Positions 43,987-58,181 of a DNA stretch of 64,000 bases are shown here, one piece after another (within the stretch, counting starts at the first letter, position 1; the number at the start of each line of letters is the position of its first letter). Below the pieces are notes generated by a model. The model made no database searches. It was not told the origin of the DNA and worked only from the letters and a program-made list of their open reading frames with translations. Location of the stretch: positions 48,287-112,286 of the forward strand of contig JAFSVH010000087.1 in assembly GCA_017450215.1 (NCBI GenBank), in the 5' to 3' direction. Source of the DNA: Bacilli bacterium. GTDB lineage: Bacteria > Bacillota_I > Bacilli_A > ML615J-28 > CAG-698. The position numbers and the translations under genes were made by a program.

Positions 43987-44526
43987 ATGATTAATTTAGT
44001 ATTATTTGAACCTGAGATTCCTCAAAATACAGGTAATATTATGAGAACATGTGTAGGTACTAATACACATCTACATTTAATTGAACCACTAGGATTTAGA
44101 CTTGATGAACATCATATTAAGAGAAGTGGTGTTAATTATATTAAGTATTTAAAATATGATGTCTATATGGATTTTGATGATTTCATTGAAAAAAGAATTA
44201 AAAGTAATCCTAATGCGAGAATGTTCTTTTTAACAAGATATGGTAGACATCATCTTCATGAAGTTGATTGTCATAATAAAGATTTAGATTATTATTTTAT
44301 TTTAGGAAAAGAATCTACTGGAATACCTAAAGACATATTGAAAGATTATTTAGATACTTGCATTAGACTTCCTATGACAGATAAAGTAAGAGCACTGAAT
44401 GTAAGTAATGTTGCTGCTATAATGGTATATGAAGCATTAAGGCAACAAGGCTTCCCAGGTTTATATGAATATGAACCTAGTGCTGATAAAGAAGGCTTTA
44501 AAGGTGAAGATTACCTTGAAAGATAA
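43987..44526 (+). CDS. trmL: tRNA (cytidine/uridine-2'-O)-methyltransferase TrmL (SpoU/TrmH family)
   Basis: 'INLVLFEPEIPQNTGNIMRTC' N-terminus. SPOUT fold size 179 aa. 'LGKESTGIP' motif. Confidence 0.7.
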   Translation: MINLVLFEPEIPQNTGNIMRTCVGTNTHLHLIEPLGFRLDEHHIKRSGVNYIKYLKYDVYMDFDDFIEKRIKSNPNARMFFLTRYGRHHLHEVDCHNKDLDYYFILGKESTGIPKDILKDYLDTCIRLPMTDKVRALNVSNVAAIMVYEALRQQGFPGLYEYEPSADKEGFKGEDYLER

Positions 44527-44603
44527 GTCCTAGTAGCTCAGTTGGATAGAGCGATAGCCTCCTAAGCTGTAGGTCGGGGGTTCAATTCCCTTCTAGGACG
44601 CCA
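44527..44603 (+). tRNA. tRNA-Arg (anticodon CCT), CCA encoded
   Basis: Cloverleaf readable. Acceptor GTCCTAG/CTAGGAC. D-arm GCTC/GAGC. Anticodon stem ATAGC/GCTGT with loop CTCCTAA. T-loop TTCAATT. 3' GCCA. Confidence 0.85.
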
Positions 44604-44657
44604 TATTAGTTGTACTATATTGATACCAAGAAAAATATCAATATTTGTAATAAAATT

Positions 44658-44688
44658 GGGTAAAATCGGTGTATTTTGCCCTTTTTTT
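44658..44688 (+). terminator. Rho-independent terminator after the tRNA (GGGTAAAAT cggtgt ATTTTGCCC + TTTTTTT)
   Basis: 9-bp stem (one G-U) plus a 7-T run. Confidence 0.6.
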
Positions 44689-44753
44689 ATGCTTTTATAG
44701 TAAAAATGATGAGAAATATAGGATAAAAATCTTAAAAAAAGTTGATCATCAAT

Positions 44754-44832
44754 AAATTTTTACACGATTACAATTGATTTTACACGTTTTACACGATTTG
44801 AAGACAATTTTACACGATTTTACACGATTTAA
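44754..44832 (+). repeat. Iteron-like direct repeats, family A: five copies of (TTT)TACACGATT(T) at about 10/20-bp phasing
   Basis: Copies start at 44761, 44781, 44790, 44811, 44821. Confidence 0.7.
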
Positions 44833-44837
44833 AAAAG

Positions 44838-44925
44838 AACCTTTTAGAGGTTCGTGAACGATTTGGGGGGTTCGTAAACGATTTGAGGGTTCGTGAACGA
44901 TTAGGGGGTTCGTGAACGATTTCAG
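44838..44925 (+). repeat. Iteron-like direct repeats, family B: four copies of GGGG(G)TTCGTGAACGATTT at 19-20 bp spacing, preceded by the palindrome GAACCTTTTAGAGGTTC
   Basis: Copies start at 44851, 44871, 44890, 44909. Each core has a mini-palindrome TCGT-GA-ACGA. Family A and family B share the ACGATT core. Confidence 0.7.
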
Positions 44926-45557
44926 ATTTTCATGCATTTTTTATCATTTACTAGTCTAAAAAATGTTCCTCTAGATACTCCTATTATTTTAGCAGCTTCT
45001 ATGTTGGTAAGTTGATGATTTATATATTGGGTTAGAATCTCATCGGTGTTAGGTGGGGTGACCGCTCTAGGTCTTCCAAACTTAACACCTTTTTCTTTTG
45101 CTATTCTTATTCCTTCCATCTGTCTTTCTCTTATGTTGTTCCTCTCATTCTCCGCAACAAAGCTTAATACTTGTAAAACAATATCACTTATAAACTTACC
45201 GACTAGATTCTTGCCTTCTATTCTAGTATCCAAAAGGGGCATATCTAATACTTTAATATCAGCACCTATTGTTTTTGTGATTCTTGTCCATTCTTCTAAT
45301 ATCATATGATAATTTCTACCTAAACGATCTATTGACTTAATAATCAGTAGGTCGTCTTTTTTTATTTTCTTTATTAATCTTTGGTAATTAGTTCTATTAA
45401 AGTCTTTCCCTGATTCTTTGTCTATATAAATGTACTTGTCTTCAATATTAAGAGTTTTAATCTCTTCATATTGCCTGTCTATTTTTTGTTGTTTCGTGGA
45501 AACACGTATGTATGCATATATCATTGAATTAATACCTCCGCTCTCATATATAGCCAT
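44922..45557 (-). CDS. Small serine recombinase (resolvase/invertase family) with C-terminal HTH
   Basis: N-terminal 'YAYIRVSTKQQ' catalytic-Ser motif, 'DRLGRN' motif, C-terminal 'AAKIIGVSRGTFFRL' HTH. 211 aa. Confidence 0.85.
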   Translation of the reverse strand: MAIYESGGINSMIYAYIRVSTKQQKIDRQYEEIKTLNIEDKYIYIDKESGKDFNRTNYQRLIKKIKKDDLLIIKSIDRLGRNYHMILEEWTRITKTIGADIKVLDMPLLDTRIEGKNLVGKFISDIVLQVLSFVAENERNNIRERQMEGIRIAKEKGVKFGRPRAVTPPNTDEILTQYINHQLTNIEAAKIIGVSRGTFFRLVNDKKCMKI

Positions 45558-45800
45558 AAAAGAAAAAATTATTCAAGCAAAACAGGTATAAAAAAAGAAG
45601 CATCAAAGAAGATATAAAAATGTATACCTTTTGATACTTCGTTATTTCTTTTATTATACCATGATTTTTATGAAAATTCCACGAAAAAATTGAATAATAA
45701 GCTAATTTTGAAATTTTTTGATATAACTTCAATCATTCTAATTAACCATACAATTTTAGACTAACAAGATTGTGTAATCTTAAAAAGAGGTAATTAGAAC

Positions 45801-46751
45801 ATGGATTTTATTAGATCACCATTAAATTATACTGGAAATAAATTTAGGATTTTAGATCAAATAGTTCCTTTATTTCCAAAAAAAATATCATGTATGATTG
45901 ATCTGTTCTGTGGTGGAGCTACTGTAGGATTGAATGTAAAAGCGAATAAAATAATTTTTGTTGATTCAAATGAGCATATCATCAATTTGTTGGTCTATTT
46001 ATCAAAGCATTCTTTCGAATCAGTACTTTGTTCTTTTGAAAACATTATTAATAAATATAATCTTTCTTATTCATATAAGTACGGATATAAAAAATATAGA
46101 GATTATTCAAAAAATAAAAATGATAATAATGGATTAAAAGAATACAATAATAAAGGCTTTTACCTGCTTCGTGATGACTATAATTCTTTGATAGATAAGA
46201 ATACAGATGAAGCCAATGCTATGCTTTATATATTAATGGTATATGCATTTAATAATGATATACGATTTAATTCGGATGGTGATTTTAATCTTCCAGTTGG
46301 AAAAACGGATTTAAATCGAATGAATGTAAATAAAATACGACAATATATAGATAGAATTAAAAGTATTAATGCAGAGTTTGTTTGTACTGACTTTACAAGT
46401 GATGATTTTCAATTATTGGTCAAAAAAGCTGACTTCATATATATGGATCCACCATATTTATTGGGTGATGCTGTATACAATTCTTGTTGGAACAATGAAA
46501 TGGAGCATAAATTATTAGATTTCATTGATTATATTAGAAATGAAAAAATTGATTTTGCCTTATCAAATGTTATGACAAAAATTGGAAAAACAAACGAGCC
46601 ACTTTCCTATTGGGTTTATAAAAATAAAGATTATTTAAAAGTAAATCACATTAAATATAATTATCGCAGCTCAAGTTATAACAAAATAATGCGCGATGCA
46701 AAAGAAGATGAAGTACTCATTTGTAATAAGAGGTATCGCCATGAAAATTAA
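45801..46751 (+). CDS. Dam-like (D12 class, alpha group) N6-adenine DNA methyltransferase 1
   Basis: 'YTGNKFRIL' N-terminus, motif I 'DLFCGGATVG', motif IV 'IYMDPPYL'. RBS AAGAGG. Confidence 0.8.
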   Translation: MDFIRSPLNYTGNKFRILDQIVPLFPKKISCMIDLFCGGATVGLNVKANKIIFVDSNEHIINLLVYLSKHSFESVLCSFENIINKYNLSYSYKYGYKKYRDYSKNKNDNNGLKEYNNKGFYLLRDDYNSLIDKNTDEANAMLYILMVYAFNNDIRFNSDGDFNLPVGKTDLNRMNVNKIRQYIDRIKSINAEFVCTDFTSDDFQLLVKKADFIYMDPPYLLGDAVYNSCWNNEMEHKLLDFIDYIRNEKIDFALSNVMTKIGKTNEPLSYWVYKNKDYLKVNHIKYNYRSSSYNKIMRDAKEDEVLICNKRYRHEN

Positions 46752-47751
46752 TAATAGACGATACATAGGATGTAAAACGAAATTATTAGACTTCATTTAT
46801 GATTCAGTTGAAAGATACAACATTTCTAAAGACTCGGTATTTGCTGATATTTTTGCAGGAACGGGAGTTGTAGCTTATAGATTTGCTTTAGAAGGATATA
46901 AAACAATTTTAAATGATACTTTATTTTCAAATTATGTGATTTATAAAACTATTTTTAATAATGAAATAATGAGAATAGATTTGTTGAAAAACGAAATAAA
47001 TTATTTTAATTCAATAGATAGTGATTCATTAAAAGCAAATTATTTTTCAAACACTTATGGTGGAAAATACTATTCTTTTGATAATGCCAAAAAAATAGGA
47101 TTTATAAGAGATTACATTGAAGAAAACAAACAAAAGTATAATGAAAGGGAATATTACTATTTAATTACCTGTTTATTATATGCATGCGATAAAATTGCAA
47201 ATACAGTTGGACATTTTGAATCATATCTACATAGTGCTCCTAAAGGAGAAAAACTTATGTTAGAAGAGTTTGAGATGAATAGCAATCTTCCTGAATCTTA
47301 TATATATAACGAAGATGCTAATAATCTTGCAAAAAAAATAAATGCAGATATTGTATATATTGATCCTCCTTACAATGCTAGACAATATGTGAATTTTTAT
47401 CATGTTTTAGAAAATTTAGCAAGGTGGAATAAGCCGACTGAATTTGAAGGAAAATCAATGAAATTTAAACGAGACAATCTTAAAAGTGATTATTGTAGAA
47501 GTAAAGCACCTTTATTGTTTGAGGATTTAATTCAATCACTAAAATGTAAATTAATTGTTGTCTCATATAATAATACATACAATGCAAAAAGTGTATCCTC
47601 TAATAATACAATTAGTGAAGATCAAATAATTGAAATATTAAGTAAAAAAGGAAATGTAACTATTAAGACAATTGATTATAGTGCATTTAATGCTGGCAAA
47701 ACAGATTTAAAAAATCACAAAGAATATTTGTATATATGTGAGGTATTTTAA
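46741..47751 (+). CDS. Dam-like (D12 class) N6-adenine DNA methyltransferase 2. Start chosen at ATG 46741 (RBS AAGAGG) rather than the ORF-track start 46696.
   Basis: 'RYIGCKTKLL' Dam N-terminal signature, motif I 'DIFAGTGVVA', motif IV 'VYIDPPYNA'. Overlaps MTase 1 by 11 nt. Confidence 0.8.
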   Translation: MKINNRRYIGCKTKLLDFIYDSVERYNISKDSVFADIFAGTGVVAYRFALEGYKTILNDTLFSNYVIYKTIFNNEIMRIDLLKNEINYFNSIDSDSLKANYFSNTYGGKYYSFDNAKKIGFIRDYIEENKQKYNEREYYYLITCLLYACDKIANTVGHFESYLHSAPKGEKLMLEEFEMNSNLPESYIYNEDANNLAKKINADIVYIDPPYNARQYVNFYHVLENLARWNKPTEFEGKSMKFKRDNLKSDYCRSKAPLLFEDLIQSLKCKLIVVSYNNTYNAKSVSSNNTISEDQIIEILSKKGNVTIKTIDYSAFNAGKTDLKNHKEYLYICEVF

Positions 47752-48668
47752 TGACAATACTTGAATACTATATTAAACAACAATCCATTGATATTTGGTA
47801 TGAAAAGTTCATTAGTAGTTCAAATAAACAAAGTGGAAAATCATTTAGTTATGTTAATACTAACTATAGAAATTTACTTTCATTTTTAATTCAATTTGAT
47901 CGATTTAGATCAAAAGTAGGAATTGAACGAAAAGATTGGAATGACAAATTGCCTGGTGGACAAGAATTAGACAAACATAGAATATCTAATTTGATTTTGT
48001 CGGGATTTATTCGAAAGGAAGACACTTATTATTACTATACACCAAAAGGTGTTGCTGCTTTGGATTTAATAGATAAAAACTATGGTGATTCCATAAAATG
48101 GATATTATTATACTTACTTCTTTTAGATTATAAAAGTGAAAATAGAAACTGCGATATTATTCACACTACAAAAGATCTTTTTTCAAAGTTACAATCAATT
48201 GGTTATACAAATGAATGTATATTAAATAGTCTAAGAAAAATAATAAAAGTAACTGATAAAATAAAACTTTTTAACGAAGATATATTTTGGTTGATCTCGT
48301 TTGTTAATGATGAAGATTTTATTAAAATGTATAAGAATAGTAGCGAACAAGAAAAAAACGATTTGAAAGAATTTGTAATTAATCGTTCAAAAGACGAACA
48401 TAGTACTGATTTGATAGCACACAAATACACACCTGGTGGAATTTATAGTGGAATAATGTTTAGGGAAGATGTTAAGGTATTTTATTATACATATAAAATA
48501 ATTGGAATACTTTCAGAGCCATTTGATTCATTTATTAATGAAATAATAAAAGTATATTGTGAAGATTTTTGTTCAGAAAATGACGCTGATATAATAAAAG
48601 AATTCATTAGCAGTCATAAAAGTATTTATATTAAAGTTAAACAAGAATTATTAATGGGGGTAAAGTAA
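47751..48668 (+). CDS. Hypothetical 305-aa protein, translationally coupled between the MTases and the GmrSD-like gene; candidate restriction endonuclease or specificity partner
   Basis: Start ATG overlaps the MTase 2 stop (TAATG). No recognised motif. A loose D...(D/E)xK candidate sits at 'TDLIAHK...FREDVK'. Position after paired MTases is where Type II REase genes sit. Confidence 0.3.
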   Translation: MTILEYYIKQQSIDIWYEKFISSSNKQSGKSFSYVNTNYRNLLSFLIQFDRFRSKVGIERKDWNDKLPGGQELDKHRISNLILSGFIRKEDTYYYYTPKGVAALDLIDKNYGDSIKWILLYLLLLDYKSENRNCDIIHTTKDLFSKLQSIGYTNECILNSLRKIIKVTDKIKLFNEDIFWLISFVNDEDFIKMYKNSSEQEKNDLKEFVINRSKDEHSTDLIAHKYTPGGIYSGIMFREDVKVFYYTYKIIGILSEPFDSFINEIIKVYCEDFCSENDADIIKEFISSHKSIYIKVKQELLMGVK

Positions 48669-48669
48669 A

Positions 48670-50742
48670 ATGCCAAATGTAAGACCTGATAGATTTGAAT
48701 TATTAAGATTTTTTAAATATGCTCCAAATACCCAATTTGTAATCCCTGTATATCAAAGAAATTATATATGGACTGCCAAAAAACAAGTAAGAAAATACTT
48801 AGATGATTATAAAGCTGTATTAAGTGGTGAGCGTGTAAAACATTTTATTGGTATTATAATGTACTTACAAATACAAAGAAGCATTGGATTTTTTGAATTT
48901 TCTGTAGTTGATGGTCAGCAGAGATTTGTAACCACATTTTTGATGCTATATGCTTTAAAGAAAATTGCTATGGAAGCTGGTAATCTTACTTTCGCGACTC
49001 AAATTAATGATTTATATTTAACAAATCAATATGCGAAAAATTATAATGATAAACTAAAATTAAAACCATTGGTATCTGATGATGATGTATTCAGCAAAAT
49101 AATAAAAGATGATCTACAGAATTTAACAAAAGAAGAAAAAAAGTCGAATGTTTATATTAATTATATTACTGTAAAAAAATATTTAAAAGAACTATATGGA
49201 CATTTTCAACTAGAACAAATGTTAGAAGCTTTTGATAAGTTTTATTTTGTTGCAATTCCATTAGATAGTAGTGAAGATGATGCTCAAAAGATTTTTGAAA
49301 CCATAAATTCTGCTGGTGCTGCATTGACAAAATCAGACTTAATTCGAAATTATATTTTGATGAATATGCAGAGCTATGAGCAAGATAGATTATACAAGGA
49401 ATATTGGTATCCTATGGAAAAATCTTTTGCTAGTTCTGGAAAAATAGAAAATTTCTTTAGAATGTTTTTGGCTAATAGAAATTACAATCTAAGTAATATG
49501 GAAGACATTTATGATGTTTTTCAAATTTGGTTTGATAAAAACAGATCAAATTATGGAATAGAACAGTCTTTAAAAACAATTTGTAAATATGCAAAATATT
49601 ATAATGATTTATTTATTAAAGAAAAGGTTGAAATTGCTCCAGAAATAGATGTTGCTTTAAAAGAATTCAAAAAAAATGCAATAGAACCTACTGCTCCTTT
49701 GTTAATGGAAATTTATAATCTATACGATAGTAAAGATGATAAGAACGACCGCCTTGTTTCAGCTATGGAATTTGCAAAGATTATTAATTTATTTAATATT
49801 TATAATGTTAGAAGAAATATTTGCAATCAAAGAACTGGTATATTAACTCGTATAGTTCCATTAATGTTGAAGTATGTTCTTGATAATTGCGATGGTGTCT
49901 ATTCAAAGATTTATGAACATTGTGTTCGTTATCTAGTAGACAATTCAAAAGGCAAGCAATCATTTATGCCAGATGATGAATATTTGAAATTAAATTTATC
50001 TGGTGCTAATGCTTATAGTTTGAGAAATTATGTAAAAACTATATTTGAAAAGATAGAGTCATATAATAATCCTGCAGTAATTGATTTTTCAAATTTAAGT
50101 ATAGAACACTTAATGCCACAGACTCCAACGGATGAGTGGCTTAAAACTTTGAATATAAAAAAGGAAGACTACGAATTTAATGTTCATAGACTTGGTAATT
50201 TAACTCTTGCTACGTCAGTAGATAATAGTAAAATGTCAAATAATCCATTTGAATATAAAAAGCAAGTTCTTCAAAATACATCTCATTTAAAAATGAATAT
50301 GGAGATAATTAACAAACCAACGTGGGGAATAAAAGAAATAGAGGAAAGAACTGCATATTTAATTCAAAAAATATGCGATTTATATCCATATGTTTCAGTT
50401 GGAGAGCAAACTGTTAATCATTATAATGTTTATTTAAAGAATGATAATTCTGACATATCTGCATTTTTGTTTTCGGATGAAACAATTGAAATTCAAGAGG
50501 GTAGCATAATAAAATGCTCATATAATAATTTCATTAGGGACTTGGTTGAAGATGGAATAATAAAGGAATCGGGAGAAAAATACGAATTTTTGCAACCATA
50601 TTCATTTAGTAATATTGAAGAAGCAACAAATACAATGGCACCCGATATTACAAATTGCTGGGAATCATGGGTAGACTATAATAAACAACCATTAAGTCTT
50701 GAATTAAGAGCAAAGTTGCTAAATTCTAAAGCAAAAAAATAG
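48670..50742 (+). CDS. GmrSD-family Type IV restriction-endonuclease-like protein (N-terminal DUF262 ParB-like NTPase/nickase + C-terminal DUF1524 His-Me finger nuclease)
   Basis: DUF262 'VVDGQQRF' (DGQQR) motif. C-terminal 'IEHLMPQTP...HRLGNLTLATSVDNSKMSNNPF' HNH-like DUF1524 motif. 690 aa. Starts 1 nt after the previous stop. Confidence 0.75.
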   Translation: MPNVRPDRFELLRFFKYAPNTQFVIPVYQRNYIWTAKKQVRKYLDDYKAVLSGERVKHFIGIIMYLQIQRSIGFFEFSVVDGQQRFVTTFLMLYALKKIAMEAGNLTFATQINDLYLTNQYAKNYNDKLKLKPLVSDDDVFSKIIKDDLQNLTKEEKKSNVYINYITVKKYLKELYGHFQLEQMLEAFDKFYFVAIPLDSSEDDAQKIFETINSAGAALTKSDLIRNYILMNMQSYEQDRLYKEYWYPMEKSFASSGKIENFFRMFLANRNYNLSNMEDIYDVFQIWFDKNRSNYGIEQSLKTICKYAKYYNDLFIKEKVEIAPEIDVALKEFKKNAIEPTAPLLMEIYNLYDSKDDKNDRLVSAMEFAKIINLFNIYNVRRNICNQRTGILTRIVPLMLKYVLDNCDGVYSKIYEHCVRYLVDNSKGKQSFMPDDEYLKLNLSGANAYSLRNYVKTIFEKIESYNNPAVIDFSNLSIEHLMPQTPTDEWLKTLNIKKEDYEFNVHRLGNLTLATSVDNSKMSNNPFEYKKQVLQNTSHLKMNMEIINKPTWGIKEIEERTAYLIQKICDLYPYVSVGEQTVNHYNVYLKNDNSDISAFLFSDETIEIQEGSIIKCSYNNFIRDLVEDGIIKESGEKYEFLQPYSFSNIEEATNTMAPDITNCWESWVDYNKQPLSLELRAKLLNSKAKK

Positions 50743-50749
50743 AGGACTA

Positions 50750-51409
50750 ATGATGATGACAAAAGGATTTATTTATATTTTAACTAATCCATCTTTCGAA
50801 GGTCATGATTGGGTGAAAATAGGCTACACAAAGAATGTGGAAAAAAGAAGAAAGGATTTGTCCACTACCGCATTACCTTTTGAATATGAGATATACGCAT
50901 ATTATGAATTACCAGAAGGAGTTGAACTAGCAGATAAAGCTGTTCATAATCTTATCCAACAATTGAATCCAGGCATTAGATTAAATCCCAATAGGGAATT
51001 CTTTGATATGAAACCAGAAGATGCATATAATTTATTAAATTGTATTGCTAAAATTAATGGTAAGGAACTAGTTAATGGACCTGGTAGAATAGAATATGAA
51101 AAAACTTTACAAATAAAAACAAAAGATTCGCCCAAAAAATATCCTAAAATGGATTGGCTAATGGAACAGGGAGTAATTAAGCCAGGTGATGACATTTATG
51201 TCGTAAACCATCCGGAAGATGTTGCAACTATAATTGATGCTGATACTGTGGAATATAATGGCGATAAATTATCTTTTAATCAATTTGGATGTAAAGTTAC
51301 TGGATGGAGTGCTATACAGACATATGCATTAATGAAAAAGGTTGGTTGCAGCGAAACACTTCATGAATTAAGATTGGCAAAAATGCAGGAAGTTAATTGG
51401 AAAGGTTAA
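50750..51409 (+). CDS. GIY-YIG-like (T5orf172) nuclease-domain protein with C-terminal DUF4357
   Basis: 'GFIYILTNPSFEGHDWVKIGYTKNVEKRRKDL' matches the T5orf172/GIY-YIG pattern. C-terminal region is of DUF4357 type. 7 bp after the GmrSD-like gene. Confidence 0.65.
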   Translation: MMMTKGFIYILTNPSFEGHDWVKIGYTKNVEKRRKDLSTTALPFEYEIYAYYELPEGVELADKAVHNLIQQLNPGIRLNPNREFFDMKPEDAYNLLNCIAKINGKELVNGPGRIEYEKTLQIKTKDSPKKYPKMDWLMEQGVIKPGDDIYVVNHPEDVATIIDADTVEYNGDKLSFNQFGCKVTGWSAIQTYALMKKVGCSETLHELRLAKMQEVNWKG

Positions 51410-51527
51410 TAATATTATTATATCGATAGCACTAGAGATAATATCAAAGGTGCTTTTTGTATATTAGGGAGGTGATGATATGTTAAAATAAATAAAATAT
51501 TATCTTTTCTTATTAGGAGGTGATTAA

Positions 51528-53000
51528 GTGTTAGGAAAAGAACAATATTTGAAATTGCAAGAATTAAAAGAATTGGGATTATCAAAACTAAAAGTATCTG
51601 AAAAACTAAATCTTTCATATAAGACTGTTTGTAATTGGTGGGATAAGGACGAATCATATTTTGAATCTTTTGAAAAAGAACATGAGTTTATGCTTGATAA
51701 TTATCGTCAATACATTATTGAGATATTAAAAATAAGTCCTCAAATTCATAATACAGTAATATTAAGAAGGATTAAAGATGACTTTAAAGATTTTGATGTT
51801 CCAAAGCAAACATTTTTTAGGTACATTAAAAAACTGAGAGAACAATCTGGTTTAATTAAACCACCTAGAAAGTTTCAAATTAGAGAACAAACAGAACCAG
51901 GATATGAAGGACAAGTTGATTTTGGTCAGTATGTTATGCAAACGGCATACAAGAAGAACATAAGAATATATTTCTTTTGTATGACATTATCATATTCCAG
52001 AATGAAGTTTGCTTGTTTTAGTGTAGAACCATTTGATGCTAGAATGGTAGTAGATGCTCACATTGCCGCATTCAAGTACTTTGGTGGAAGACCGCAAATG
52101 CTAGTATATGACCAAGACAAAACAATGGTAGTATCAGAGAATTTAGGAGAAGTAGTATTTGTTAAAGAATTTGAAGATTTTATCAAACAAACAGGATTTT
52201 CAATTTATCTATGTAAAGGTTATGATCCATCTACTAAAGGTAAGATTGAAAAAACTGTAGACTTTGTTAAACATCAGTTTTTAGATGGAAGAATCTATTA
52301 TGGCCTTGATAGACTTAATTGTGAATTTATTGATTGGTTAGATCGTGAAGGAAATGGATTAATTAATGACACAATAAAGAAAGTTCCACGAGATATGTTT
52401 AAGCATGAATATCCAAAACTTCAAAAGTTTTATGAAATTAAAAATGATGATATTGTGGTTCATACTGTTTATCATGATACTGTTGAATATAAGGATAATC
52501 TGTATAAGCTTCCTCAAGCATTAGTTGATGAAGGAGATAGAATTAGAATTGAAAAGTACGACGATGATTTACTATTTTACCATGCATTAACAAGTGAACT
52601 ATTGTGTAAACATAAGATAGTTGGTGGAATGGGTAATATTGTAACACTAAAAGATGAGAAAATAGTTAATGATACAGTAGAAGAAGTATTATTAAAAGAT
52701 TTCAAAGATAGTGATGTAGCGATTAAGTTTATTAAAAGAATGAGAGAACAAAAACCAAGATATGTATATCCTCAGTGTAGAAGGCTCCAAAGTATGAGAA
52801 AGTATTATTCTGATAAGGCGATAATAGATGCAATGGAATATTGTGTTAGTGTTGACACATGTACGATATTTGAATTATCTAGTTATCTAATTTATAAAAT
52901 GGGAGATACAATAGCTAAGAAGTTTATAACTACACATGTTATAAGACATTATAAGGATAGAGCAGAAGAGATTAGAAAGGAGTTAATTAATAATGGCTGA
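51528..53000 (+). CDS. istA: IS21-family transposase IstA (HTH + DDE integrase core)
   Basis: N-terminal HTH 'LSKLKVSEKLNLSYKTVCNW'. DDE core 'GQVDFGQ'. 490 aa. GTG start with RBS AGGAGGTG. Confidence 0.85.
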   Translation: MLGKEQYLKLQELKELGLSKLKVSEKLNLSYKTVCNWWDKDESYFESFEKEHEFMLDNYRQYIIEILKISPQIHNTVILRRIKDDFKDFDVPKQTFFRYIKKLREQSGLIKPPRKFQIREQTEPGYEGQVDFGQYVMQTAYKKNIRIYFFCMTLSYSRMKFACFSVEPFDARMVVDAHIAAFKYFGGRPQMLVYDQDKTMVVSENLGEVVFVKEFEDFIKQTGFSIYLCKGYDPSTKGKIEKTVDFVKHQFLDGRIYYGLDRLNCEFIDWLDREGNGLINDTIKKVPRDMFKHEYPKLQKFYEIKNDDIVVHTVYHDTVEYKDNLYKLPQALVDEGDRIRIEKYDDDLLFYHALTSELLCKHKIVGGMGNIVTLKDEKIVNDTVEEVLLKDFKDSDVAIKFIKRMREQKPRYVYPQCRRLQSMRKYYSDKAIIDAMEYCVSVDTCTIFELSSYLIYKMGDTIAKKFITTHVIRHYKDRAEEIRKELINNG

Positions 53001-53655
53001 TAATATTGAAATACAAGCACTTGCTAGAGTACTTAATTTACAAAACATAGCTAATGGTAATATTGATCTAAATAATGAAAGAATATCAAATAAAGATTAT
53101 TTATATCAGATTTTACTTGAAGAAGTAAATATTAGAAATAAAAACAAGTTAATGGATATTAGAAAAATGGCTAAGCTTCCTAATAAGGTATTTGATGAAA
53201 CAAGAATAACTGAAGGATTAAAGTGGCAATTATCTAAACTTAAAGAATTTGATTTTAAATTAAACAAACAAAACATATTTATTGTTGGGGACTGTGCAAC
53301 AGGAAAAACTTCTCTTGCAACACTATTAGGCAATAAAGCACTTGACAAAGGTGCTAAAGTATCTTACATTACTTATGATGATTTAGTTATTGAATCTAAA
53401 ATAAAGAAAAGAGTATGGAATCATATTTTAGAATCTGATGTACTAATACTAGATGATGTGTTTTATTTACCACCAACTGAAGAAGAACTAATTCAAATAT
53501 ATAAGGTTTTAATGTTTTTACAAGAAACAAGGAGTATTATTGTAATTACTAATAGAAGCTTATCTAGTTGGAAAGATATGAAGGTAGATACACATTTAAT
53601 TGAGACATTGCAAAAAAGACTGATGCAGAACGCTCAAATAATTACACTTGGCTAA
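52993..53655 (+). CDS. istB: IS21-family helper ATPase IstB
   Basis: Walker A 'FIVGDCATGKTSLA'. Walker B 'VLILDDVF'. Overlaps istA by 8 nt. Confidence 0.85.
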   Translation: MADNIEIQALARVLNLQNIANGNIDLNNERISNKDYLYQILLEEVNIRNKNKLMDIRKMAKLPNKVFDETRITEGLKWQLSKLKEFDFKLNKQNIFIVGDCATGKTSLATLLGNKALDKGAKVSYITYDDLVIESKIKKRVWNHILESDVLILDDVFYLPPTEEELIQIYKVLMFLQETRSIIVITNRSLSSWKDMKVDTHLIETLQKRLMQNAQIITLG

Positions 53656-53934
53656 AGAGTAGTAGGTTCATCAGTTGCCATAAAGATAACCTCCTTTGTG
53701 ATAAGTGATGAGTTTAATATTTGACTGTTAGGAACTCGTAGGAGTGTATAAAAATTCTCAAAAATTACCAATTAATTAGCAAAATTTGAGAATATTTTAT
53801 AAAAAAGGGGTAGGGGGGTCTAAATCTCTGTACCTTTTTACCCGGGCATCGGCCTGGGGTTTCGTGCGAATTTTTTTGAGTTCAAACTGTGAAAATAGTA
53901 TTATCGTAACAATTCCATTCAATTGGATTAATGT

Positions 53935-54184
53935 GGTTGGTAATAAAGTTGGTAATAAGGTTGGTAATAAAGTTCTAGGGAAAGATGAAAAGGCAGACTT
54001 GACCGAAAACAGAAAGAAAATAATAAGTGAAATTAGAAACAACCCTAATATCACAAAAGAACAATTATCGATGATTATAGGAATTAGCACAACAGCTATT
54101 GATAAGAATTTAGAATACTTAAAAGTGCATAATTATATTGAAAGAGTAGGCTCTAAGAAAACAGGATATTGGAAAGTAAAATAA
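53935..54184 (+). pseudogene. C-terminal remnant of a wHTH transcriptional-regulator/ATPase gene (RecG-C-terminal-like 'HATPase_c_4 + wHTH' family), preceded by VGNK tetrapeptide-repeat linker; 5' part missing
   Basis: 'KKIISEIRNNPNITKEQLSMIIGISTTAIDKNLEYLKVHNYIERVGSKKTGYWKV' is the characteristic C-terminal wHTH of that family. Upstream 'VGNKVGNKVGNKV' is encoded by 3 tandem 12-bp repeats at 53947-53982. There is no upstream ATPase domain; an IS sits immediately 5'. Confidence 0.5.
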
Positions 54185-54317
54185 AAAAGATTGATCTGAT
54201 AGAATAATACATAGTGACTATTTCACTTATGAAATTTACAATTAAAGAAGGAGGTGTTGTTTTACGAAGAATAAATATGGAAAAAACAATTTTATAATTG
54301 CTATAATATCTATATTT

Positions 54318-54806
54318 TTGATTCTTATTAGTTTTATTTGGATGTTTACATATGAGCCTCCTAAAATGGAATCATTAAAAACAACAACCGGTATCATTAA
54401 AGAATACGAACAAAAAGACAAAAAATGGTATTCAAAATTACTTGGTAATGAAGATGTGCCACGTTTCAGTATAAAATTAGTTAATGGTGAATTTTATAAG
54501 GCAACAGGAATAATGTATGATAATATTAATCATGAGTTATTTGATGTAATTGAGTCGGGAAAAGAAATCAAAATTACATACATTGATGGTGGCTTTTGGT
54601 CGCAAAATGATATTATGCAAATAGAATATGAAGGTATCAGTTATCTTAAGGTTGATGATATTATAGAAGACATGAAGAAAAGTGATAGAATTAGTAAAAT
54701 AATATGTTCTTGTATTATTGTAATCACAACAGTTTTATCTTTTTCGTTGTTTATATTAAATTATAAAAAATATCGGGGTGCAAAAAATTCACACGATTAT
54801 AAGTAG
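54318..54806 (+). CDS. Small membrane protein (N- and C-terminal TM helices), unknown function
   Basis: 162-aa ORF. Start codon uncertain (ORF-track start is probably a non-ATG codon). Confidence 0.35.
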   Translation: MILISFIWMFTYEPPKMESLKTTTGIIKEYEQKDKKWYSKLLGNEDVPRFSIKLVNGEFYKATGIMYDNINHELFDVIESGKEIKITYIDGGFWSQNDIMQIEYEGISYLKVDDIIEDMKKSDRISKIICSCIIVITTVLSFSLFILNYKKYRGAKNSHDYK

Positions 54807-54858
54807 GGGTGTTAAAATTGTATTAAAACATTTCTACTTAGACATATAAAAATAATTG

Positions 54859-54908
54859 CATTGATACTATAGCAAATGTTATTTGCTTTTGTATCAATGT
54901 TTTTTTAT
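54859..54908 (+). terminator. Rho-independent terminator, nested hairpin (ATTGATAC[AGCAAA..TTTGCT]GTATCAAT) + TTTTTTT
   Basis: Read directly in sequence. Confidence 0.55.
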
Positions 54909-54994
54909 AAAAAACTATATCAATTACAAGATATAATATCATTATTATAACACTTTTATAAAATTCGGCAATATTATAAAATTGCAGAAACATA

Positions 54995-55024
54995 TTGAAA
55001 TATTGGAATTATTTATGATATAAT
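54995..55024 (+). promoter_or_regulatory. Promoter for the abiEi-like gene: TTGAAA, 18-nt spacer, TGATATAAT
   Basis: Near-consensus -35 and extended -10, 25 bp upstream of ATG 55049. Confidence 0.45.
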
Positions 55025-55048
55025 GATGCTACAAAGGAATGTGATATT

Positions 55049-55630
55049 ATGAATAAAAATGAAGTTACATTTGACAAAAGATATTATGATATTAAAGAAC
55101 TACTATCAATGGGATTTAGTTATTATAAAATAAAGAATCTTGTAGATATAGGCATATTTAATAAACTTAGTAAATCACTTTATGAAAATAATAATTATCA
55201 AGGTAATATTAATGATTTTGAAACTGTATGTGCTTATGTTCATCAAGGTGTTGTTTGTATGCTTTCTGCTGCAAGATTTTATAATCTCACTAATTATATT
55301 CCTGATTCAGTCGATATTGCGATAGATAGGAAGATGAAAATATCTAGTTATCCTGCTTCACCATCTATAAATGTTTGGTATTTTAGTAATGAGCGCTATG
55401 AGGAAGAAGTAATTACAGTAGATAAAGAAAGGCAATTTAAAATCTATAGTATTGAAAAAACCGTTATTGATATTATTTATTATCGTAATCGTGTAGGAAT
55501 AGAGGAAACTAAAGAAGTGCTGAACAATTATCTAAAAAGGAGCGATAGAGATCTTATTAAACTACATAAACTTGCAAGTAAGCTTGGTTGCATAAAAATA
55601 CTTAAGACATATTTAGAGGTATTAGTATGA
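55049..55630 (+). CDS. AbiEi-family antitoxin-like transcriptional regulator (type IV TA)
   Basis: Size (193 aa), N-terminal wHTH-like region, and its stop overlapping (ATGA) the start of an AbiEii-like N-terminus. Family call from pattern memory. Confidence 0.55.
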   Translation: MNKNEVTFDKRYYDIKELLSMGFSYYKIKNLVDIGIFNKLSKSLYENNNYQGNINDFETVCAYVHQGVVCMLSAARFYNLTNYIPDSVDIAIDRKMKISSYPASPSINVWYFSNERYEEEVITVDKERQFKIYSIEKTVIDIIYYRNRVGIEETKEVLNNYLKRSDRDLIKLHKLASKLGCIKILKTYLEVLV

Positions 55631-55912
55631 TTAGTGCTGATTCAGTCAAGAATAGACTATATAATAAAGCTAAAGCAACAGGTAAAAAGGAATATAGTTA
55701 AATTTCCGGAAGATTTAATGTTTCAATTGACAATATCCGAATATAATAAAATCTTGATGTCACAAAATGTGACATCAAACTGGTTATTGGAAGGTTTTAA
55801 AATAATGAAAGATCTAGTAGATGTAACTAGTTTTGATACTTTGCAAAGAATTAAATCTTTCTTCATAAGTGATAATGAAATTACATTCCATGAATATTGT
55901 GATAAATTTTAA
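55627..55912 (+). pseudogene. Frameshifted and 3'-truncated AbiEii/AbiGii-family nucleotidyltransferase toxin gene
   Basis: Frame 1 'MISADSVKNRLYNKAKATGKKEYS*' matches the typical AbiEii N-terminus and stops at 55699-55701. It continues in another frame ('FPEDLMFQLTISEYNKI...') to a stop at 55912, about 100 aa where full-length proteins are about 280-300 aa. No NTase GG(S/T) motif. Confidence 0.5.
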
Positions 55913-55941
55913 GAATTATAATATTTTTGATTAATTATTTA

Positions 55942-55970
55942 AGATACTAGAGAGCATCTAGTATCTTTTA
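55942..55970 (+). terminator. Rho-independent terminator AGATACTAGA gagca TCTAGTATCT + TTTTAATTTCCTTTT
   Basis: Perfect 10-bp stem, 5-nt loop, T-rich tail. Confidence 0.65.
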
Positions 55971-56090
55971 ATTTCCTTTTAATTTTAAATTTGTTATAAT
56001 CTAAATATAAATATTTTGTTTAATAGCTTTATTTTTAGAGGCTAAAATTGGCTGTGTGAAATCTAGCTATTAGAAATGCTTAGGTGATAT

Positions 56091-58181
56091 ATGAAGAGAT
56101 TATTAAGTTCTATTTTTGTTTTATTAATGTTATTTTTAGTTGTTGGTTGTGATAACCATAATAACCAAGTTGTATATTATAACGTTACAGTTAATTTGAT
56201 GGATGATGTTGATGATCCAACAATTCTTATGCAAAAGGTTTTAAGTGGTAATAAAGCAGTAGAACCAGAAGTTCCTTTGATTCCTCATATGAAGTGTTTA
56301 GGCTTTTATGATGGTGATACATTATGGGACTTTGAAAATGATTTAGTTACTAAAGACTTAGAATTAATTGCGAAATGGGAAGAAGGTATTCAAGATTACG
56401 AAGAAGCTGAAGAATTGATTGCTGCAATTGACACTAAAGATTTTGAATCAATTAAGTTAGCTAGAAATAAATATGATAGCTTGGCAGATGATGTGAAGAA
56501 ATATGTATCAAATTATCGTAATCTTTATAGAGCTGAGATTGAATATTATAACGTAGAAGTTGAAAAAGCTGATACTGTAGAGAGATTATATGAAATTATT
56601 GACTTGATTAAAGATTATCCTTCAGATACTTTACTTCGTATGGGAAAGAATGTACAAATTCCATTTAATAAATTGTTTGAACTTTACTATGGAGAAAAGA
56701 TTAGTAATGCTAATGATGATCAACAAAATGTAATTAAAGCTATTGCTAATGCCTTTCTTTATAAAGGTGTTTATAATCAATATGACCAAACGAGAAGAGT
56801 TGCTGGCTCTAGTCCATATGATGCAAGTATTTACGATACTTTGTATTTAGATTGTAGTGCATATATTTATAGTGTTTATACATATGCATTTGGTACTTCG
56901 CATCATTTACAGCTTAATACAGCGATGAATGATAATTATGCTAGTAGTCATATTGGTACTAGTGAAATTGTATATTATGTTGATGTTAGAGATTATCCTG
57001 ATGAGAAGAGTCAAAAAGCATTGCTTTCTGAAATCTATAGTAATTTACAAGTTGGTGACTGTATTAATTATCGACATGGTACTTCATCTGGTACTGCTGG
57101 TCACATTGTAATGTATATTGGTAATGATACTATTATTCATTCAACTGGAGATGATATGAGCGCTAATGAATATTCAAGTAATCCTGAATTATTCCAAGAA
57201 ATGCAAACAAACAAGGAAAAGGTCGATGGAACTGTATTTACATTTTCTGCTCAAGATATGTTTGTAAATGATTCTAGTCATAGATATTTGTTTAAAAAAA
57301 CAGCATCAGATTCTGTTTGGACATTTGCGATAATTAGACCACTTGCTAATAGTACTAAGATGAAAATTACTGATAAAGCATTATCTAATTATCTACTTAG
57401 TGATGTTGATATTTATAAGACATCAAGTGCTGGTTCTAGAACTAGTGTGAAAAGAGGACAAGAAGTTACTTTTACTTTGACTTTTGTCAATCATAGCAAT
57501 GTTGATATTGAGAATGTTCCTGTATATAAAGATTTAGGAAATAATTCATATGATTTTATTAGTACTAGTGATAATGGTATTTATATTGAAAATGCTGGGG
57601 TATTTCATCTTATAAATATTAAGGCTAATGAAACTAAAGAGATTACTTATACTGTGAGAGTCAAAGAAACAGCTTCAGGAACAATATCTGAAGGAGATAC
57701 ATATGTTCATAATATTGTAATACCTAAGATTACAAATACTGTATGTACTGATTTTGATCATAAAGAATTTACTAGAATTGCTACTGAATTACTTAATACT
57801 AAACAATACAATTCAACATTAGAATTGATTGAAGATAGTTATAAGCAAATGGGTATTGAGATTGGTGATTTGTTTGATTTGTCTTTAGAAGATGAAGCAT
57901 TTATCAATGGAATTGATTATCGAGTATCTGATTTACGTAAAGGTACAAAGGTAAAGAGGTTGCAACAAAACACAATTGAGATTGGTGATATATTGTGCAC
58001 ATATAATCAAAAGACTGGTGAATATACTAATTATTTATATATTAGAGAAGATTTATTAGTTAAGATTGTTGATGGAAGAGTTAGTAAAACCTCGGTTCCA
58101 TCAGGTGTACAATTTATCTTAGATAAGTTCTTTGCTTTCTCTAAGTGGGAGGTAATGAGACCAACAATAATTAAGAAATAA
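56091..58181 (+). CDS. Lipoprotein with NlpC/P60-like (C40 peptidase) domain and additional beta-rich domains
   Basis: Lipobox 'LVVGCDN'. 'LDCSAYIYSV' and 'GDCINY...AGHIVMYIGNDTIIHS' resemble the NlpC/P60 Cys and His motifs. Confidence 0.45.
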   Translation: MKRLLSSIFVLLMLFLVVGCDNHNNQVVYYNVTVNLMDDVDDPTILMQKVLSGNKAVEPEVPLIPHMKCLGFYDGDTLWDFENDLVTKDLELIAKWEEGIQDYEEAEELIAAIDTKDFESIKLARNKYDSLADDVKKYVSNYRNLYRAEIEYYNVEVEKADTVERLYEIIDLIKDYPSDTLLRMGKNVQIPFNKLFELYYGEKISNANDDQQNVIKAIANAFLYKGVYNQYDQTRRVAGSSPYDASIYDTLYLDCSAYIYSVYTYAFGTSHHLQLNTAMNDNYASSHIGTSEIVYYVDVRDYPDEKSQKALLSEIYSNLQVGDCINYRHGTSSGTAGHIVMYIGNDTIIHSTGDDMSANEYSSNPELFQEMQTNKEKVDGTVFTFSAQDMFVNDSSHRYLFKKTASDSVWTFAIIRPLANSTKMKITDKALSNYLLSDVDIYKTSSAGSRTSVKRGQEVTFTLTFVNHSNVDIENVPVYKDLGNNSYDFISTSDNGIYIENAGVFHLINIKANETKEITYTVRVKETASGTISEGDTYVHNIVIPKITNTVCTDFDHKEFTRIATELLNTKQYNSTLELIEDSYKQMGIEIGDLFDLSLEDEAFINGIDYRVSDLRKGTKVKRLQQNTIEIGDILCTYNQKTGEYTNYLYIREDLLVKIVDGRVSKTSVPSGVQFILDKFFAFSKWEVMRPTIIKK

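Follow-up and report, generated by a model that had tools for sequence, protein, structure and literature searches.

We analysed a window of 64,000 nucleotides (nt) from the contig JAFSVH010000087.1 of a Bacilli bacterium (GCA_017450215.1), in which a transfer RNA (tRNA) gene, tRNA-Arg(CCT), is followed directly by a run of mobile and defence genes, and we conclude with good confidence that positions 44604–54844 form a single mobile element, 10,241 bp long, that has integrated here and belongs to a family of serine-recombinase elements that sit at the CCA ends of tRNA and transfer-messenger RNA (tmRNA) genes. The element carries the recombinase of this family and its ends match those of relatives; the family joins its host DNA exactly at the CCA of 13 tRNA/tmRNA genes, its backbone has moved recently, and restriction-modification (RM) genes dominate its cargo. 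The proposed integration target, tRNA-Arg(CCT), occupies 44527–44603 (all coordinates are those of the window, and features lie on the plus strand unless stated otherwise) and is the only tRNA that ARAGORN detects in the whole window, with a match of 66 bits to the Rfam tRNA model. An earlier note on this DNA had proposed an accessory island directly 3′ of this gene, extending to 56090, and its starting point stands, as the tRNA ends at 44603 and sister lineages have other content there. A wider model, which we put forward tentatively and at rather less than even confidence, is that the recombinase is a promiscuous, resolvase-sized integrase of a very abundant and undescribed family, which would read the spacing from T-loop to CCA, cross over at the CA and end its element on the right in a mimic of a tRNA end, so that RM and defence cassettes come to be stacked in tandem, with the iterons as an additional layer of control.

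The evidence for the family comes from 81 loci with relatives of the window recombinase, 50 of which were informative and belong to the clade with at least 73% identity to it. A convergent tRNA or tmRNA gene lies within 900 nt of the recombinase stop codon in half of these (25/50), and the targets are of 13 kinds (Leu-CAA, Leu-GAG, Gly-TCC, Gly-CCC, Ser-CGA, Ser-TGA, Ser-GCT, Ala-TGC, Thr-CGT, Pro-CGG, Glu-CTC, Arg-CCG and tmRNA). Irrespective of the tRNA, homologous element DNA starts 0–4 nt past the CCA, and in the window insertion at this point leaves tRNA-Arg(CCT) intact. The order of parts in the family is left end, recombinase convergent to the tRNA, divergent promoter region, exchangeable cargo (in most cases a single RM system) and right end, and unadorned elements measure 4.6–5 kb and are found in low-GC gut bacteria. 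The backbone of promoter, recombinase and left end (∼1.7 kb) is 90–97% identical at the DNA level across ten tRNA/tmRNA sites whose host flanks have nothing in common, which would be hard to explain without recent movement. Relatives bounded by two sites (4.65–4.94 kb) hold the recombinase as their sole mobility gene, together with one or two small helix-turn-helix (HTH) proteins and one RM system. At one tmRNA site in two strains, flanks, recombinase and ends are 97–98% identical and the cargo is unrelated, indicating that cargo can be exchanged within a conserved backbone; for the loci L113 and L147, a common right host flank was not reached within 6 kb. That the recombinase belongs to a family seen at 13 kinds of tRNA/tmRNA also bears out the view of the earlier note that the window holds a horizontally acquired defence island with a layered history. 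Our literature search found no description of the element family, though journals beyond those covered may hold one, and turned up as related reports only the phiRSM integrase and the TIGER/Islander caution on ‘Serine Core’ islands, and the family is apparently both undescribed and large.

In the window this recombinase is encoded at 44922–45557 on the minus strand (PF00239, E = 4e-26, profile positions 1–144 of 145) by an open reading frame (ORF) of 211 amino acids (aa), or of 200 aa from the probable start at M12 (position 45524). An N-terminal catalytic domain is followed by a C-terminal HTH, the catalytic motifs (YAYIRVSTKQQ, DRLGR and the E-helix) are kept in alignment with Sin and gamma-delta resolvase, and the protein aligns over its full length with Sin (residues 1–198), gamma-delta resolvase (residues 3–182) and Tn3 resolvase, the nearest solved structure being Sin/Bin3 (2r0q, E = 5e-30). 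By catalytic domain, HTH and length it is a small serine recombinase of the ‘S-Core’ superfamily. PF00239 is the only domain found in it and the domains of large serine integrases (PF07508 Recombinase, zinc-ribbon/coiled-coil) are absent, and this together with the size of 211 aa rules out an enzyme of the phiC31/Bxb1/TnpX/Ccr type; matches to the XisF and CcrA profiles cover the catalytic domain only and are far under cutoff. The best NCBIfam match is the Mpi invertase model NF009949 (78 bits against a cutoff of 272). A DNA invertase switch of the Hin/Gin/Mpi kind is not supported, as no significant inverted repeats surround either the cargo or the region 45558–45800, the divergent intergenic region between recombinase and cargo operon, for which a search for flanking inverted repeats found none. 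This region presumably holds the promoters and is conserved beside the recombinase in up to 33–35 family loci. The IS607 family is likewise ruled out by the order of catalytic domain before HTH and by a weak, partial match to the IS607 model NF033518 (25 bits, cutoff 110).

Homologues of the recombinase with at least 80% identity number in the thousands, and every one of the best 120 clusters is at least 80% identical to it. Relatives on plasmids and phages reach at most ∼50–55% identity, and the clade at ≥73% identity was found in none of 72,556 plasmids or 50,697 phages. The recognition helix of the HTH (GVSRGTFFRLV) is invariant in 54 family members. The recombinase is the probable integrase and excisionase of the element. 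The earlier note had taken a tRNA gene followed by a serine recombinase as the signature of an island; the association holds, but the enzyme is of resolvase type, so that the value of the signature needed demonstration, which the family comparison supplies.

The ends of the window element resemble those of its relatives. Its left end (44604–44688) opens with a 17-nt AT-rich spacer and a half-site, TGATAC (44621–44626), which forms part of the 5′ arm of a hairpin at 44617–44644, and on inspection of the sequence a second hairpin with a T-run follows at 44658–44681. Further inside, five copies of TTTTACACGATT form iteron array A (44758–44829; 0.75 copies expected in the whole window), and four copies of GGTTCGTGAACGATT with a period of 19–20 bp form array B (44849–44921), which abuts the recombinase stop codon (four matches against 0.62 expected, with no shuffle as high as four). 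Each array is unique in the window and above every shuffle, and the left-end region as a whole extends over 44604–44921. Family left ends likewise share an architecture rather than a sequence, namely an AT-rich spacer and a hairpin with TGATAC or TAATAC in its 5′ arm, and further inside, beside the recombinase stop, three to five direct iterons that differ by subtype. The idea that the iterons are the sites bound by the recombinase HTH was rejected, as they are subtype-specific while the recognition helix is invariant; the invariance of the helix therefore fits a constant half-site motif and not the variable iterons. Among the left ends of L113..L167, several subtypes also contain, ∼75–105 nt after the tRNA, a degenerate tRNA 3′ half (e.g. 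CTAGGGTTCAAGTCCCGTTATTAGTAAAA), conserved as a T-arm-like GGGTTCAAGTCCC with a pseudo-acceptor. In the commonest (‘650-type’) subtype an 83–97-aa HTH protein (HTH_SB/HTH_23-like) with a Cys-rich tail lies between tRNA and recombinase (L136:6642–6932), where it might control directionality or serve in regulation; the window element is without it.

The right end (54775–54844) consists of the iterons GGGGTGCAAAAAATTCACACGATT (54775–54798) and AGGGGTGTTAAAATTGTATTAAAAC (54805–54829), the motif GTATTA (54820–54825) and a terminal CA (54843–54844). Over 72 nt it shares 86% identity with the right end of L156, and L124 has the same type; in both of these loci the right end directly abuts the left end of another family element. 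L124 and L156 also have the motif of array A at their right ends, and in the window itself the iteron ACACGATT, found five times at the left end, recurs at the right end in the same orientation. The element thus ends at 54844 and not at ∼55.97–56.09 kb, where the earlier note had placed the right boundary from a terminator and gene content. A crossover in the middle of the ‘terminator-like’ hairpin was rejected, as the homology between elements begins at the CCA, upstream of the hairpin. Our search for a long direct repeat of the tRNA end found none, in agreement with the earlier note; the best match, of 33 bp (44614–44645 with 54914–54946), was equalled in score by 119 of 300 shuffles and, being at chance level, was rejected as an att core. 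Such absence is expected of a serine recombinase with a 2-bp crossover.

Comparison of the junctions reveals a shared motif. RRTAY starts at +18/+19 after the CCA in 24 of 26 tRNA/tmRNA junctions, the window included, across at least six unrelated left-end subtypes. Left ends that are not next to a tRNA abut the right end of another element, which always consists of three to five direct iterons followed by GTATYA-N17-CA. The pattern of the resulting composite site, GTATYA-N17-CA-N16-18-NRRTAY, has 20 matches over 593 kb of family loci, every one oriented as the elements are, compared with 1.7 expected (maximum 6). In the 64-kb window it occurs once (0.36 expected), at 54820–54867, made up of GTATTA (54820–54825), CA (54843–54844) and TGATAC (54862–54867). 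The junctions fit the dyad consensus GTATYA-N17-CA|N17-TRATAC, and the symmetry of the half-sites goes past the bases that the pattern enforces (AATTGTATYA ... TRATACAATT).

These observations suggest how the element might move. The site would be a dyad of ∼48 bp, with a recombinase dimer on its constant GTATYA/TRATAC motifs and strand exchange at the CA in its centre; in the case of a tRNA this CA would be the last two bases of the CCA, and for tRNA-Arg we infer the crossover dinucleotide to be the terminal CA at 44602–44603. The T-loop GTTCRA, located 24 to 19 nt before the 3′ end (GTTCAA at 44580–44585 in tRNA-Arg(CCT)), would take the place of the GTATYA half-site, so that any tRNA or tmRNA could serve as target; this mimicry by the T-loop is the most speculative step of the model, and could hold given the position of the loop. 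Each right end would rebuild a landing pad like a tRNA end and thereby permit tandem stacking of elements. The model predicts an attP junction of ...CATTTCTACTTAGACA|TATTAGTTGTACTATATTGATAC in the excised element and an empty attB junction of ...CTTCTAGGACGCCA|TATAAAAATAATTGCATTGATAC.

Several points weigh against this interpretation. Two of the 26 tRNA junctions are without the motif at +18/+19, the T-loop sits 1 nt off the position of GTATYA, and the half-sites of known small serine recombinases measure ∼12–14 bp, as compared to ∼24 bp for those proposed here. We identified no binding protein for the subtype-specific iterons (right ends in L124, L132, L156, L161 and others). No pair of occupied and empty sites came to light for any family member, and the crossover position comes from comparison of junctions alone; for the window element itself neither an empty site nor an excised circle was found, as all same-species contigs carry the element. 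The ends of the IS21 element inside it were not found either, so that events within 51459–54770 may have taken place in more than one order. Finally, the compositional deviation of the island is weak: its GC content of 0.25–0.30 is that of the rest of the window, and tetranucleotide z-scores in it are ≤2.2, values that housekeeping segments equal. The GC and k-mer comparison that the earlier note had proposed as a check is therefore not discriminating.

Other explanations of the locus give the recombinase no part in bringing the DNA here. The sequence 3′ of tRNA-Arg could be a passive variable hotspot, in which unrelated pieces (RM operon, IS21 and AbiE) were gathered by homologous recombination between flanks and by insertion sequences, the apparent right end being a coincidence or belonging to another, decayed element. 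This would agree with the many small inserts that sister lineages carry at the same tRNA without a recombinase, with the swap of cargo between conserved ends that took place without movement of an element, and with the 3.4 kb (IS21, a regulator remnant and orf162) that separate the hairpin at 51427–51458 from the right-end core at 54820–54844, a distance of ∼150 bp in relatives. Against a coincidental right end, both ends carry iterons of one type (ACACGATT) that are oriented alike, the composite site has a single, sensibly placed match in the window, and other family elements dock at right ends of the same type; we regard the hotspot as improbable.

Alternatively the recombinase could be a passenger, either the remnant of a plasmid or transposon resolvase, with the iterons as its origin or res site, or an invertase of the RM operon, on an island that arrived by other means. 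The protein is indeed of resolvase type with the Mpi invertase as its best NCBIfam match (far under cutoff), its relatives at ∼50% identity are common plasmid resolvases, direct iterons by an AT-rich stretch look like the origins of theta replicons, and islands with a ‘Serine Core’ recombinase are possibly false positives (PMC12424338). Yet the element has no rep gene and no inverted repeats around the promoter region, the clade at ≥73% identity is absent from the plasmids and phages searched, and a passenger would hardly keep a fixed position and orientation at the exact CCA end of 13 tRNA/tmRNA genes, be bounded in elements of 4.65–4.94 kb that have no other mobility gene, or leave near-identical backbones at unrelated sites; we consider this explanation quite improbable. 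Hardest to credit is that the IS21 element, acting as a composite transposon or as one with cargo, moved all or some of the island. Both of its proteins, IstA and IstB, look intact, and assemblies often break in istB, hinting at related copies; against this, the exact IstA is found in this context only, no terminal inverted repeats or target duplication occur near the genes or the island borders, and these borders match the ends of the serine-recombinase family. We therefore continue to read 44604–54844 as a single element of that family.

Relatives of the window bear on the island in two ways. Lookups of exact proteins (TrmL, the lipoprotein, IstA, AbiEi and the T5orf172 protein) returned 12–18 contigs each, from several ruminant-gut metagenomes. 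All same-species contigs are 99.98–100% identical to the window and have the same architecture including the IS21 genes, and no empty-site or IS21-free variant was among them; the island is fixed in the sampled, near-clonal population. The earlier note had asked for a comparison with related strains and had named the same genes in the same order in all relatives, with no empty site, as the outcome that would speak against an island. Within the species this is formally what we found, but because the contigs are near-identical they are a weak test of island status and little informative. The sister lineages, in contrast, are without the island. No close GTDB representative of the species exists, the nearest being 56% identical in the TtcA-ThiF protein with synteny lost. 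In the sister lineages TrmL is 72–74% identical, and the upstream synteny and the pair of trmL and tRNA-Arg(CCT) are kept, the pair at 91–92% identity, and the sequences diverge from the first base past the CCA. What follows the tRNA there is either housekeeping genes directly or varied small inserts, even where TrmL is identical, and the tRNA is also a point at which several contigs break. The sequence 3′ of tRNA-Arg is therefore a flexible site, and the content seen in the window was acquired after the lineages split.

Some further observations concern turnover at this site. Two sister-lineage loci with identical TrmL (L092 and L094) have, directly after tRNA-Arg, an ORF for a MazE-like antitoxin in one and a glycosyltransferase-like gene in the other, with no recombinase gene nearby in this exchange. 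In the assembly ERZ27256806, two contigs, those of L003 and L006, have an overlap equal to k = 141 (window 44467–44607) and break at CCA+4 (‘TATT’), an assembly-graph branch at the left junction of the element that hints at a co-existing variant with other content after the tRNA; a left end that starts with TATTGAAAC, as in L140/L132, would have the same bases as this break.

The genes named in the earlier note (recombinase, RM and Type IV genes, IS21, regulator remnant and AbiE) were all recovered by family matches. In the window element, two methyltransferases and a candidate nuclease would constitute a Type II RM system, and GmrSD and a T5orf172 protein complete the cargo. The two D12-class N6-adenine methyltransferases (45801–46751 and 46741–47751, the latter with coordinates as in the metagenome contigs; both PF02086) match the PADLOC family MTase_II with E-values of 2e-84 and 7e-113, and correspond to opposite halves of the fused double methyltransferases PDLC03292/03287. 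The start of orf305 (47751–48668) overlaps the methyltransferase stop; the protein has no match in Pfam, NCBIfam or PADLOC and belongs to an orphan family of 18 proteins, and only its position makes it a candidate for the Type II restriction endonuclease. The next gene (48670–50742) encodes a GmrSD-type Type IV restriction enzyme with DUF262 (GmrSD_N; PF03235, E = 7e-30) and DUF1524 (GmrSD_C; PF07510, E = 2e-25) in a single polypeptide, as is characteristic of GmrSD, and matches Orf5 (E = 3e-100), HEC-06 and mREase_IV in PADLOC. A T5orf172 (GIY-YIG-like) protein follows at 50756–51409 (PF10544, E = 1e-13; PADLOC candidate defence family PDC-S57, E = 2e-49).

Cargo of this kind is usual for the family, in which 108 non-redundant neighbouring ORFs are mostly RM genes of Types I, II, IIG, III and IV. 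Type I is represented by S and M subunits, and Type II by D12, EcoRI-like and C5 methyltransferases and by HaeIII, TdeIII and AlwI nucleases; Type IIG and Type III genes and GmrSD make up further cargo, GmrSD being found repeatedly. The cargo of the window species also varies in places. One metagenome scaffold has a gap of 10 N in the first D12 methyltransferase (window 46108–46116; L001:12122–12198) with foreign sequence beside it, and the gene is split there into parts of 126 and 176 aa; there seems to be a subpopulation with an insertion in this gene. Same-species variants (L195, L196, L184, L188 and L189) differ in the length of GmrSD (644 versus 690 aa) and of orf162 (154 versus 146 aa), and in a lipoprotein gene split into 415 + 273 aa.

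Between cargo and right end lies the region that the IS21 genes, the regulator remnant and orf162 now occupy. It begins with the family hairpin TAGCACTAGAGATAATATCAAAGGTGCTTTTT (51427–51458; 28/32 identities to L118 and 31/34 to L151), with alignment scores of 44–53 against a background of ≤30. In relatives this hairpin marks the boundary of cargo and right-end module; of the ‘650-type’ module the window contains the first hairpin only. Directly after it, inside the element, come istA (51528–53000; PF00665 (rve), 490 aa) and istB (52993–53655; PF01695 (IstB_IS21), E = 5e-28, 220 aa), which overlap, and this adjacency of a DDE/rve transposase and an AAA+ helper identifies the IS21 family. The search for terminal inverted repeats or a target duplication returned a 13-nt AT-rich inverted repeat (51492–51504 with 53788–53800) and no duplication. 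The exact IstA protein is found in this one context, with no second copy. Contigs from several samples start or end in istB (∼53212–53217), which suggests related insertion-sequence copies or polymorphism elsewhere in those communities. A short winged helix-turn-helix (wHTH) ORF (53786–54184; 83 aa as called from 53933) matches HTH_24/MarR_2 in its C-terminal part only, with weak PADLOC matches to the C-termini of larger proteins, and is probably the C-terminal remnant of such a protein; at its start, three copies of a 12-bp tandem repeat, GGTAATAAAGTT (53929–53974), encode (GNKV)3. The last ORF, orf162 (54318–54806; 146 aa as called from 54366), has no family match in Pfam, NCBIfam or PADLOC, is present in all same-species contigs, and overlaps the right-end iterons with its 3′ end.

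The 1.25 kb beyond 54844, up to 56090, which the earlier note had included in the island, is a separate and older layer, either the decayed remains of an earlier element whose recombinase has been lost or a piece of the original flank. It opens with a half-site of left-end-like architecture (54845–54906), with a spacer, TGATAC at 54862–54867, a hairpin at 54859–54899 and a T-run, which may be the DNA that originally followed the tRNA or may mark where an older element, now without its recombinase, had its left end. This hairpin accounts for a mir-2831 ‘hit’ at 54858–54900 in the Rfam scan of the window, in which the tRNA is the only real match. The AbiEi gene that follows (55049–55630) is intact (PADLOC AbiEi, E = 4e-72, positions 3–193 of 194), in contrast to the decayed AbiE with truncated AbiEii described in the earlier note. 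AbiEii is the part that is missing, and neither PADLOC, tblastn nor alignment to genuine AbiEii detected one downstream, leaving AbiEi an orphan rather than half of an AbiE pair. A possible 24-codon AbiEii stub (55627–55701) has as its sole support an ATGA stop/start overlap with AbiEi, and was rejected since its residue similarity is not significant by the same three approaches; in a genuine pair (L198, a Clostridium plasmid) the same ATGA overlap leads into an AbiEii of 314 aa. A 92-aa ORF (55634–55912) contains a fragment of ORF6N (E = 3.5e-8, aa 12–49 only) and is 60% identical to part of a 301-aa ORF6N protein in L096, and a terminator-like hairpin lies between this fragment and the lipoprotein gene.

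The flanks on both sides of these layers are formed by other genes. Upstream are the housekeeping genes for an exonuclease, SIR2, a TtcA-ThiF fusion and TrmL, and on the right, outside the island, an NlpC/P60 lipoprotein gene (56091–58181) is followed by Bmp and ABC transporter genes. The PP-loop protein of the window (42441–43976) is TtcA-like and fused to a ThiF domain (511 aa), and sister lineages (L088, L093 and L095) have TtcA without ThiF (277–285 aa) and, between TtcA and trmL on the opposite strand, two large genes with collagen/Flg_new repeats.

For the window, the result is that a vaguely outlined island becomes a delimited element with defined ends plus a separate older remnant. As a tRNA-linked defence island it is ordinary; its interest lies in the recombinase clade, the precise yet promiscuous targeting, the apparently self-renewing docking sites and the iterons. 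Islands adjacent to tRNA genes are usually credited to tyrosine or large serine integrases, and here the apparent driver is an enzyme the size of a resolvase, from a clade annotated as ‘invertase/resolvase’ and treated by island-finding pipelines as a possible false positive. Integration at the CCA of any tRNA or tmRNA would, if true, explain the spread and stacking of RM systems in gut Bacillota and would make the integrase-like behaviour and target choice of a 200-aa serine recombinase directly testable. Such very small integrases, with a universal landing site that is not disrupted by insertion, could also become a tool.

Among known systems, the Sin/Bin3 and beta-type resolvases of Gram-positive plasmids and Tn552 have the same domain order and catalytic motifs as the window recombinase, but these plasmid relatives are only ∼50% identical to it. 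Resolvases work on a pair of res sites within a single replicon and are not known to integrate elements at tRNA ends. The accessory sites used by Sin contain half-sites in direct repeat and so offer a precedent for direct iterons close to a crossover site; in contrast to the Sin type, the iterons of the window family vary by subtype while the HTH is invariant. In IS607 a small serine recombinase moves short elements that have sub-terminal repeats and a relaxed choice of target (PMC7192596). The IS607 TnpA has an N-terminal, MerR-like HTH and a C-terminal catalytic domain, the reverse of the window recombinase, and shows little site preference, whereas the window family is precise at tRNA/tmRNA 3′ ends or their mimics.

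With classical tRNA islands (P4-like tyrosine-integrase islands, those of large serine integrases, tycheposons and ‘Serine Core’ islands) the window element has in common that an accessory island lies 3′ of a tRNA or tmRNA gene, with defence genes as cargo and with tandem arrays and decay products. It differs in having neither a tyrosine nor a large serine integrase and no duplicated tRNA 3′ segment, in its insertion past the CCA and not in the gene, and in the use of many tRNA species by one recombinase clade. Islands found by TIGER/Islander with ‘Serine Core’ as their sole recombinase have been regarded as possible false positives or as carrying novel integrases (PMC12424338). The closest precedent for the window recombinase comes from filamentous phages of Ralstonia, whose phiRSM integrase, a small serine recombinase resembling resolvases, carries out integration and excision at a core of 13 bp in the 3′ end of tRNA-Ser (PMC4471427; PMC7192596), the tRNA 3′ end being described for this type by Askora et al. 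2011 as reported in PMC7192596. Both enzymes are small serine recombinases of ∼200 aa without a ‘Recombinase’ domain, and the window enzyme, like that of phiRSM, would act at a tRNA 3′ end. The integrases of phiRSM1/3 and Rs551 are, however, 28.6% identical to the window recombinase, which falls outside the phiRSM Int clade, and they belong to inoviruses of Proteobacteria, compared with RM cassettes in low-GC Bacillota. phiRSM uses tRNA-Ser only, with an attP/attB core of 13 bp, whereas the window family is found at 13 tRNA/tmRNA genes with no evident shared core longer than CA and, unlike phiRSM, carries iteron arrays at its ends and would regenerate its docking site.

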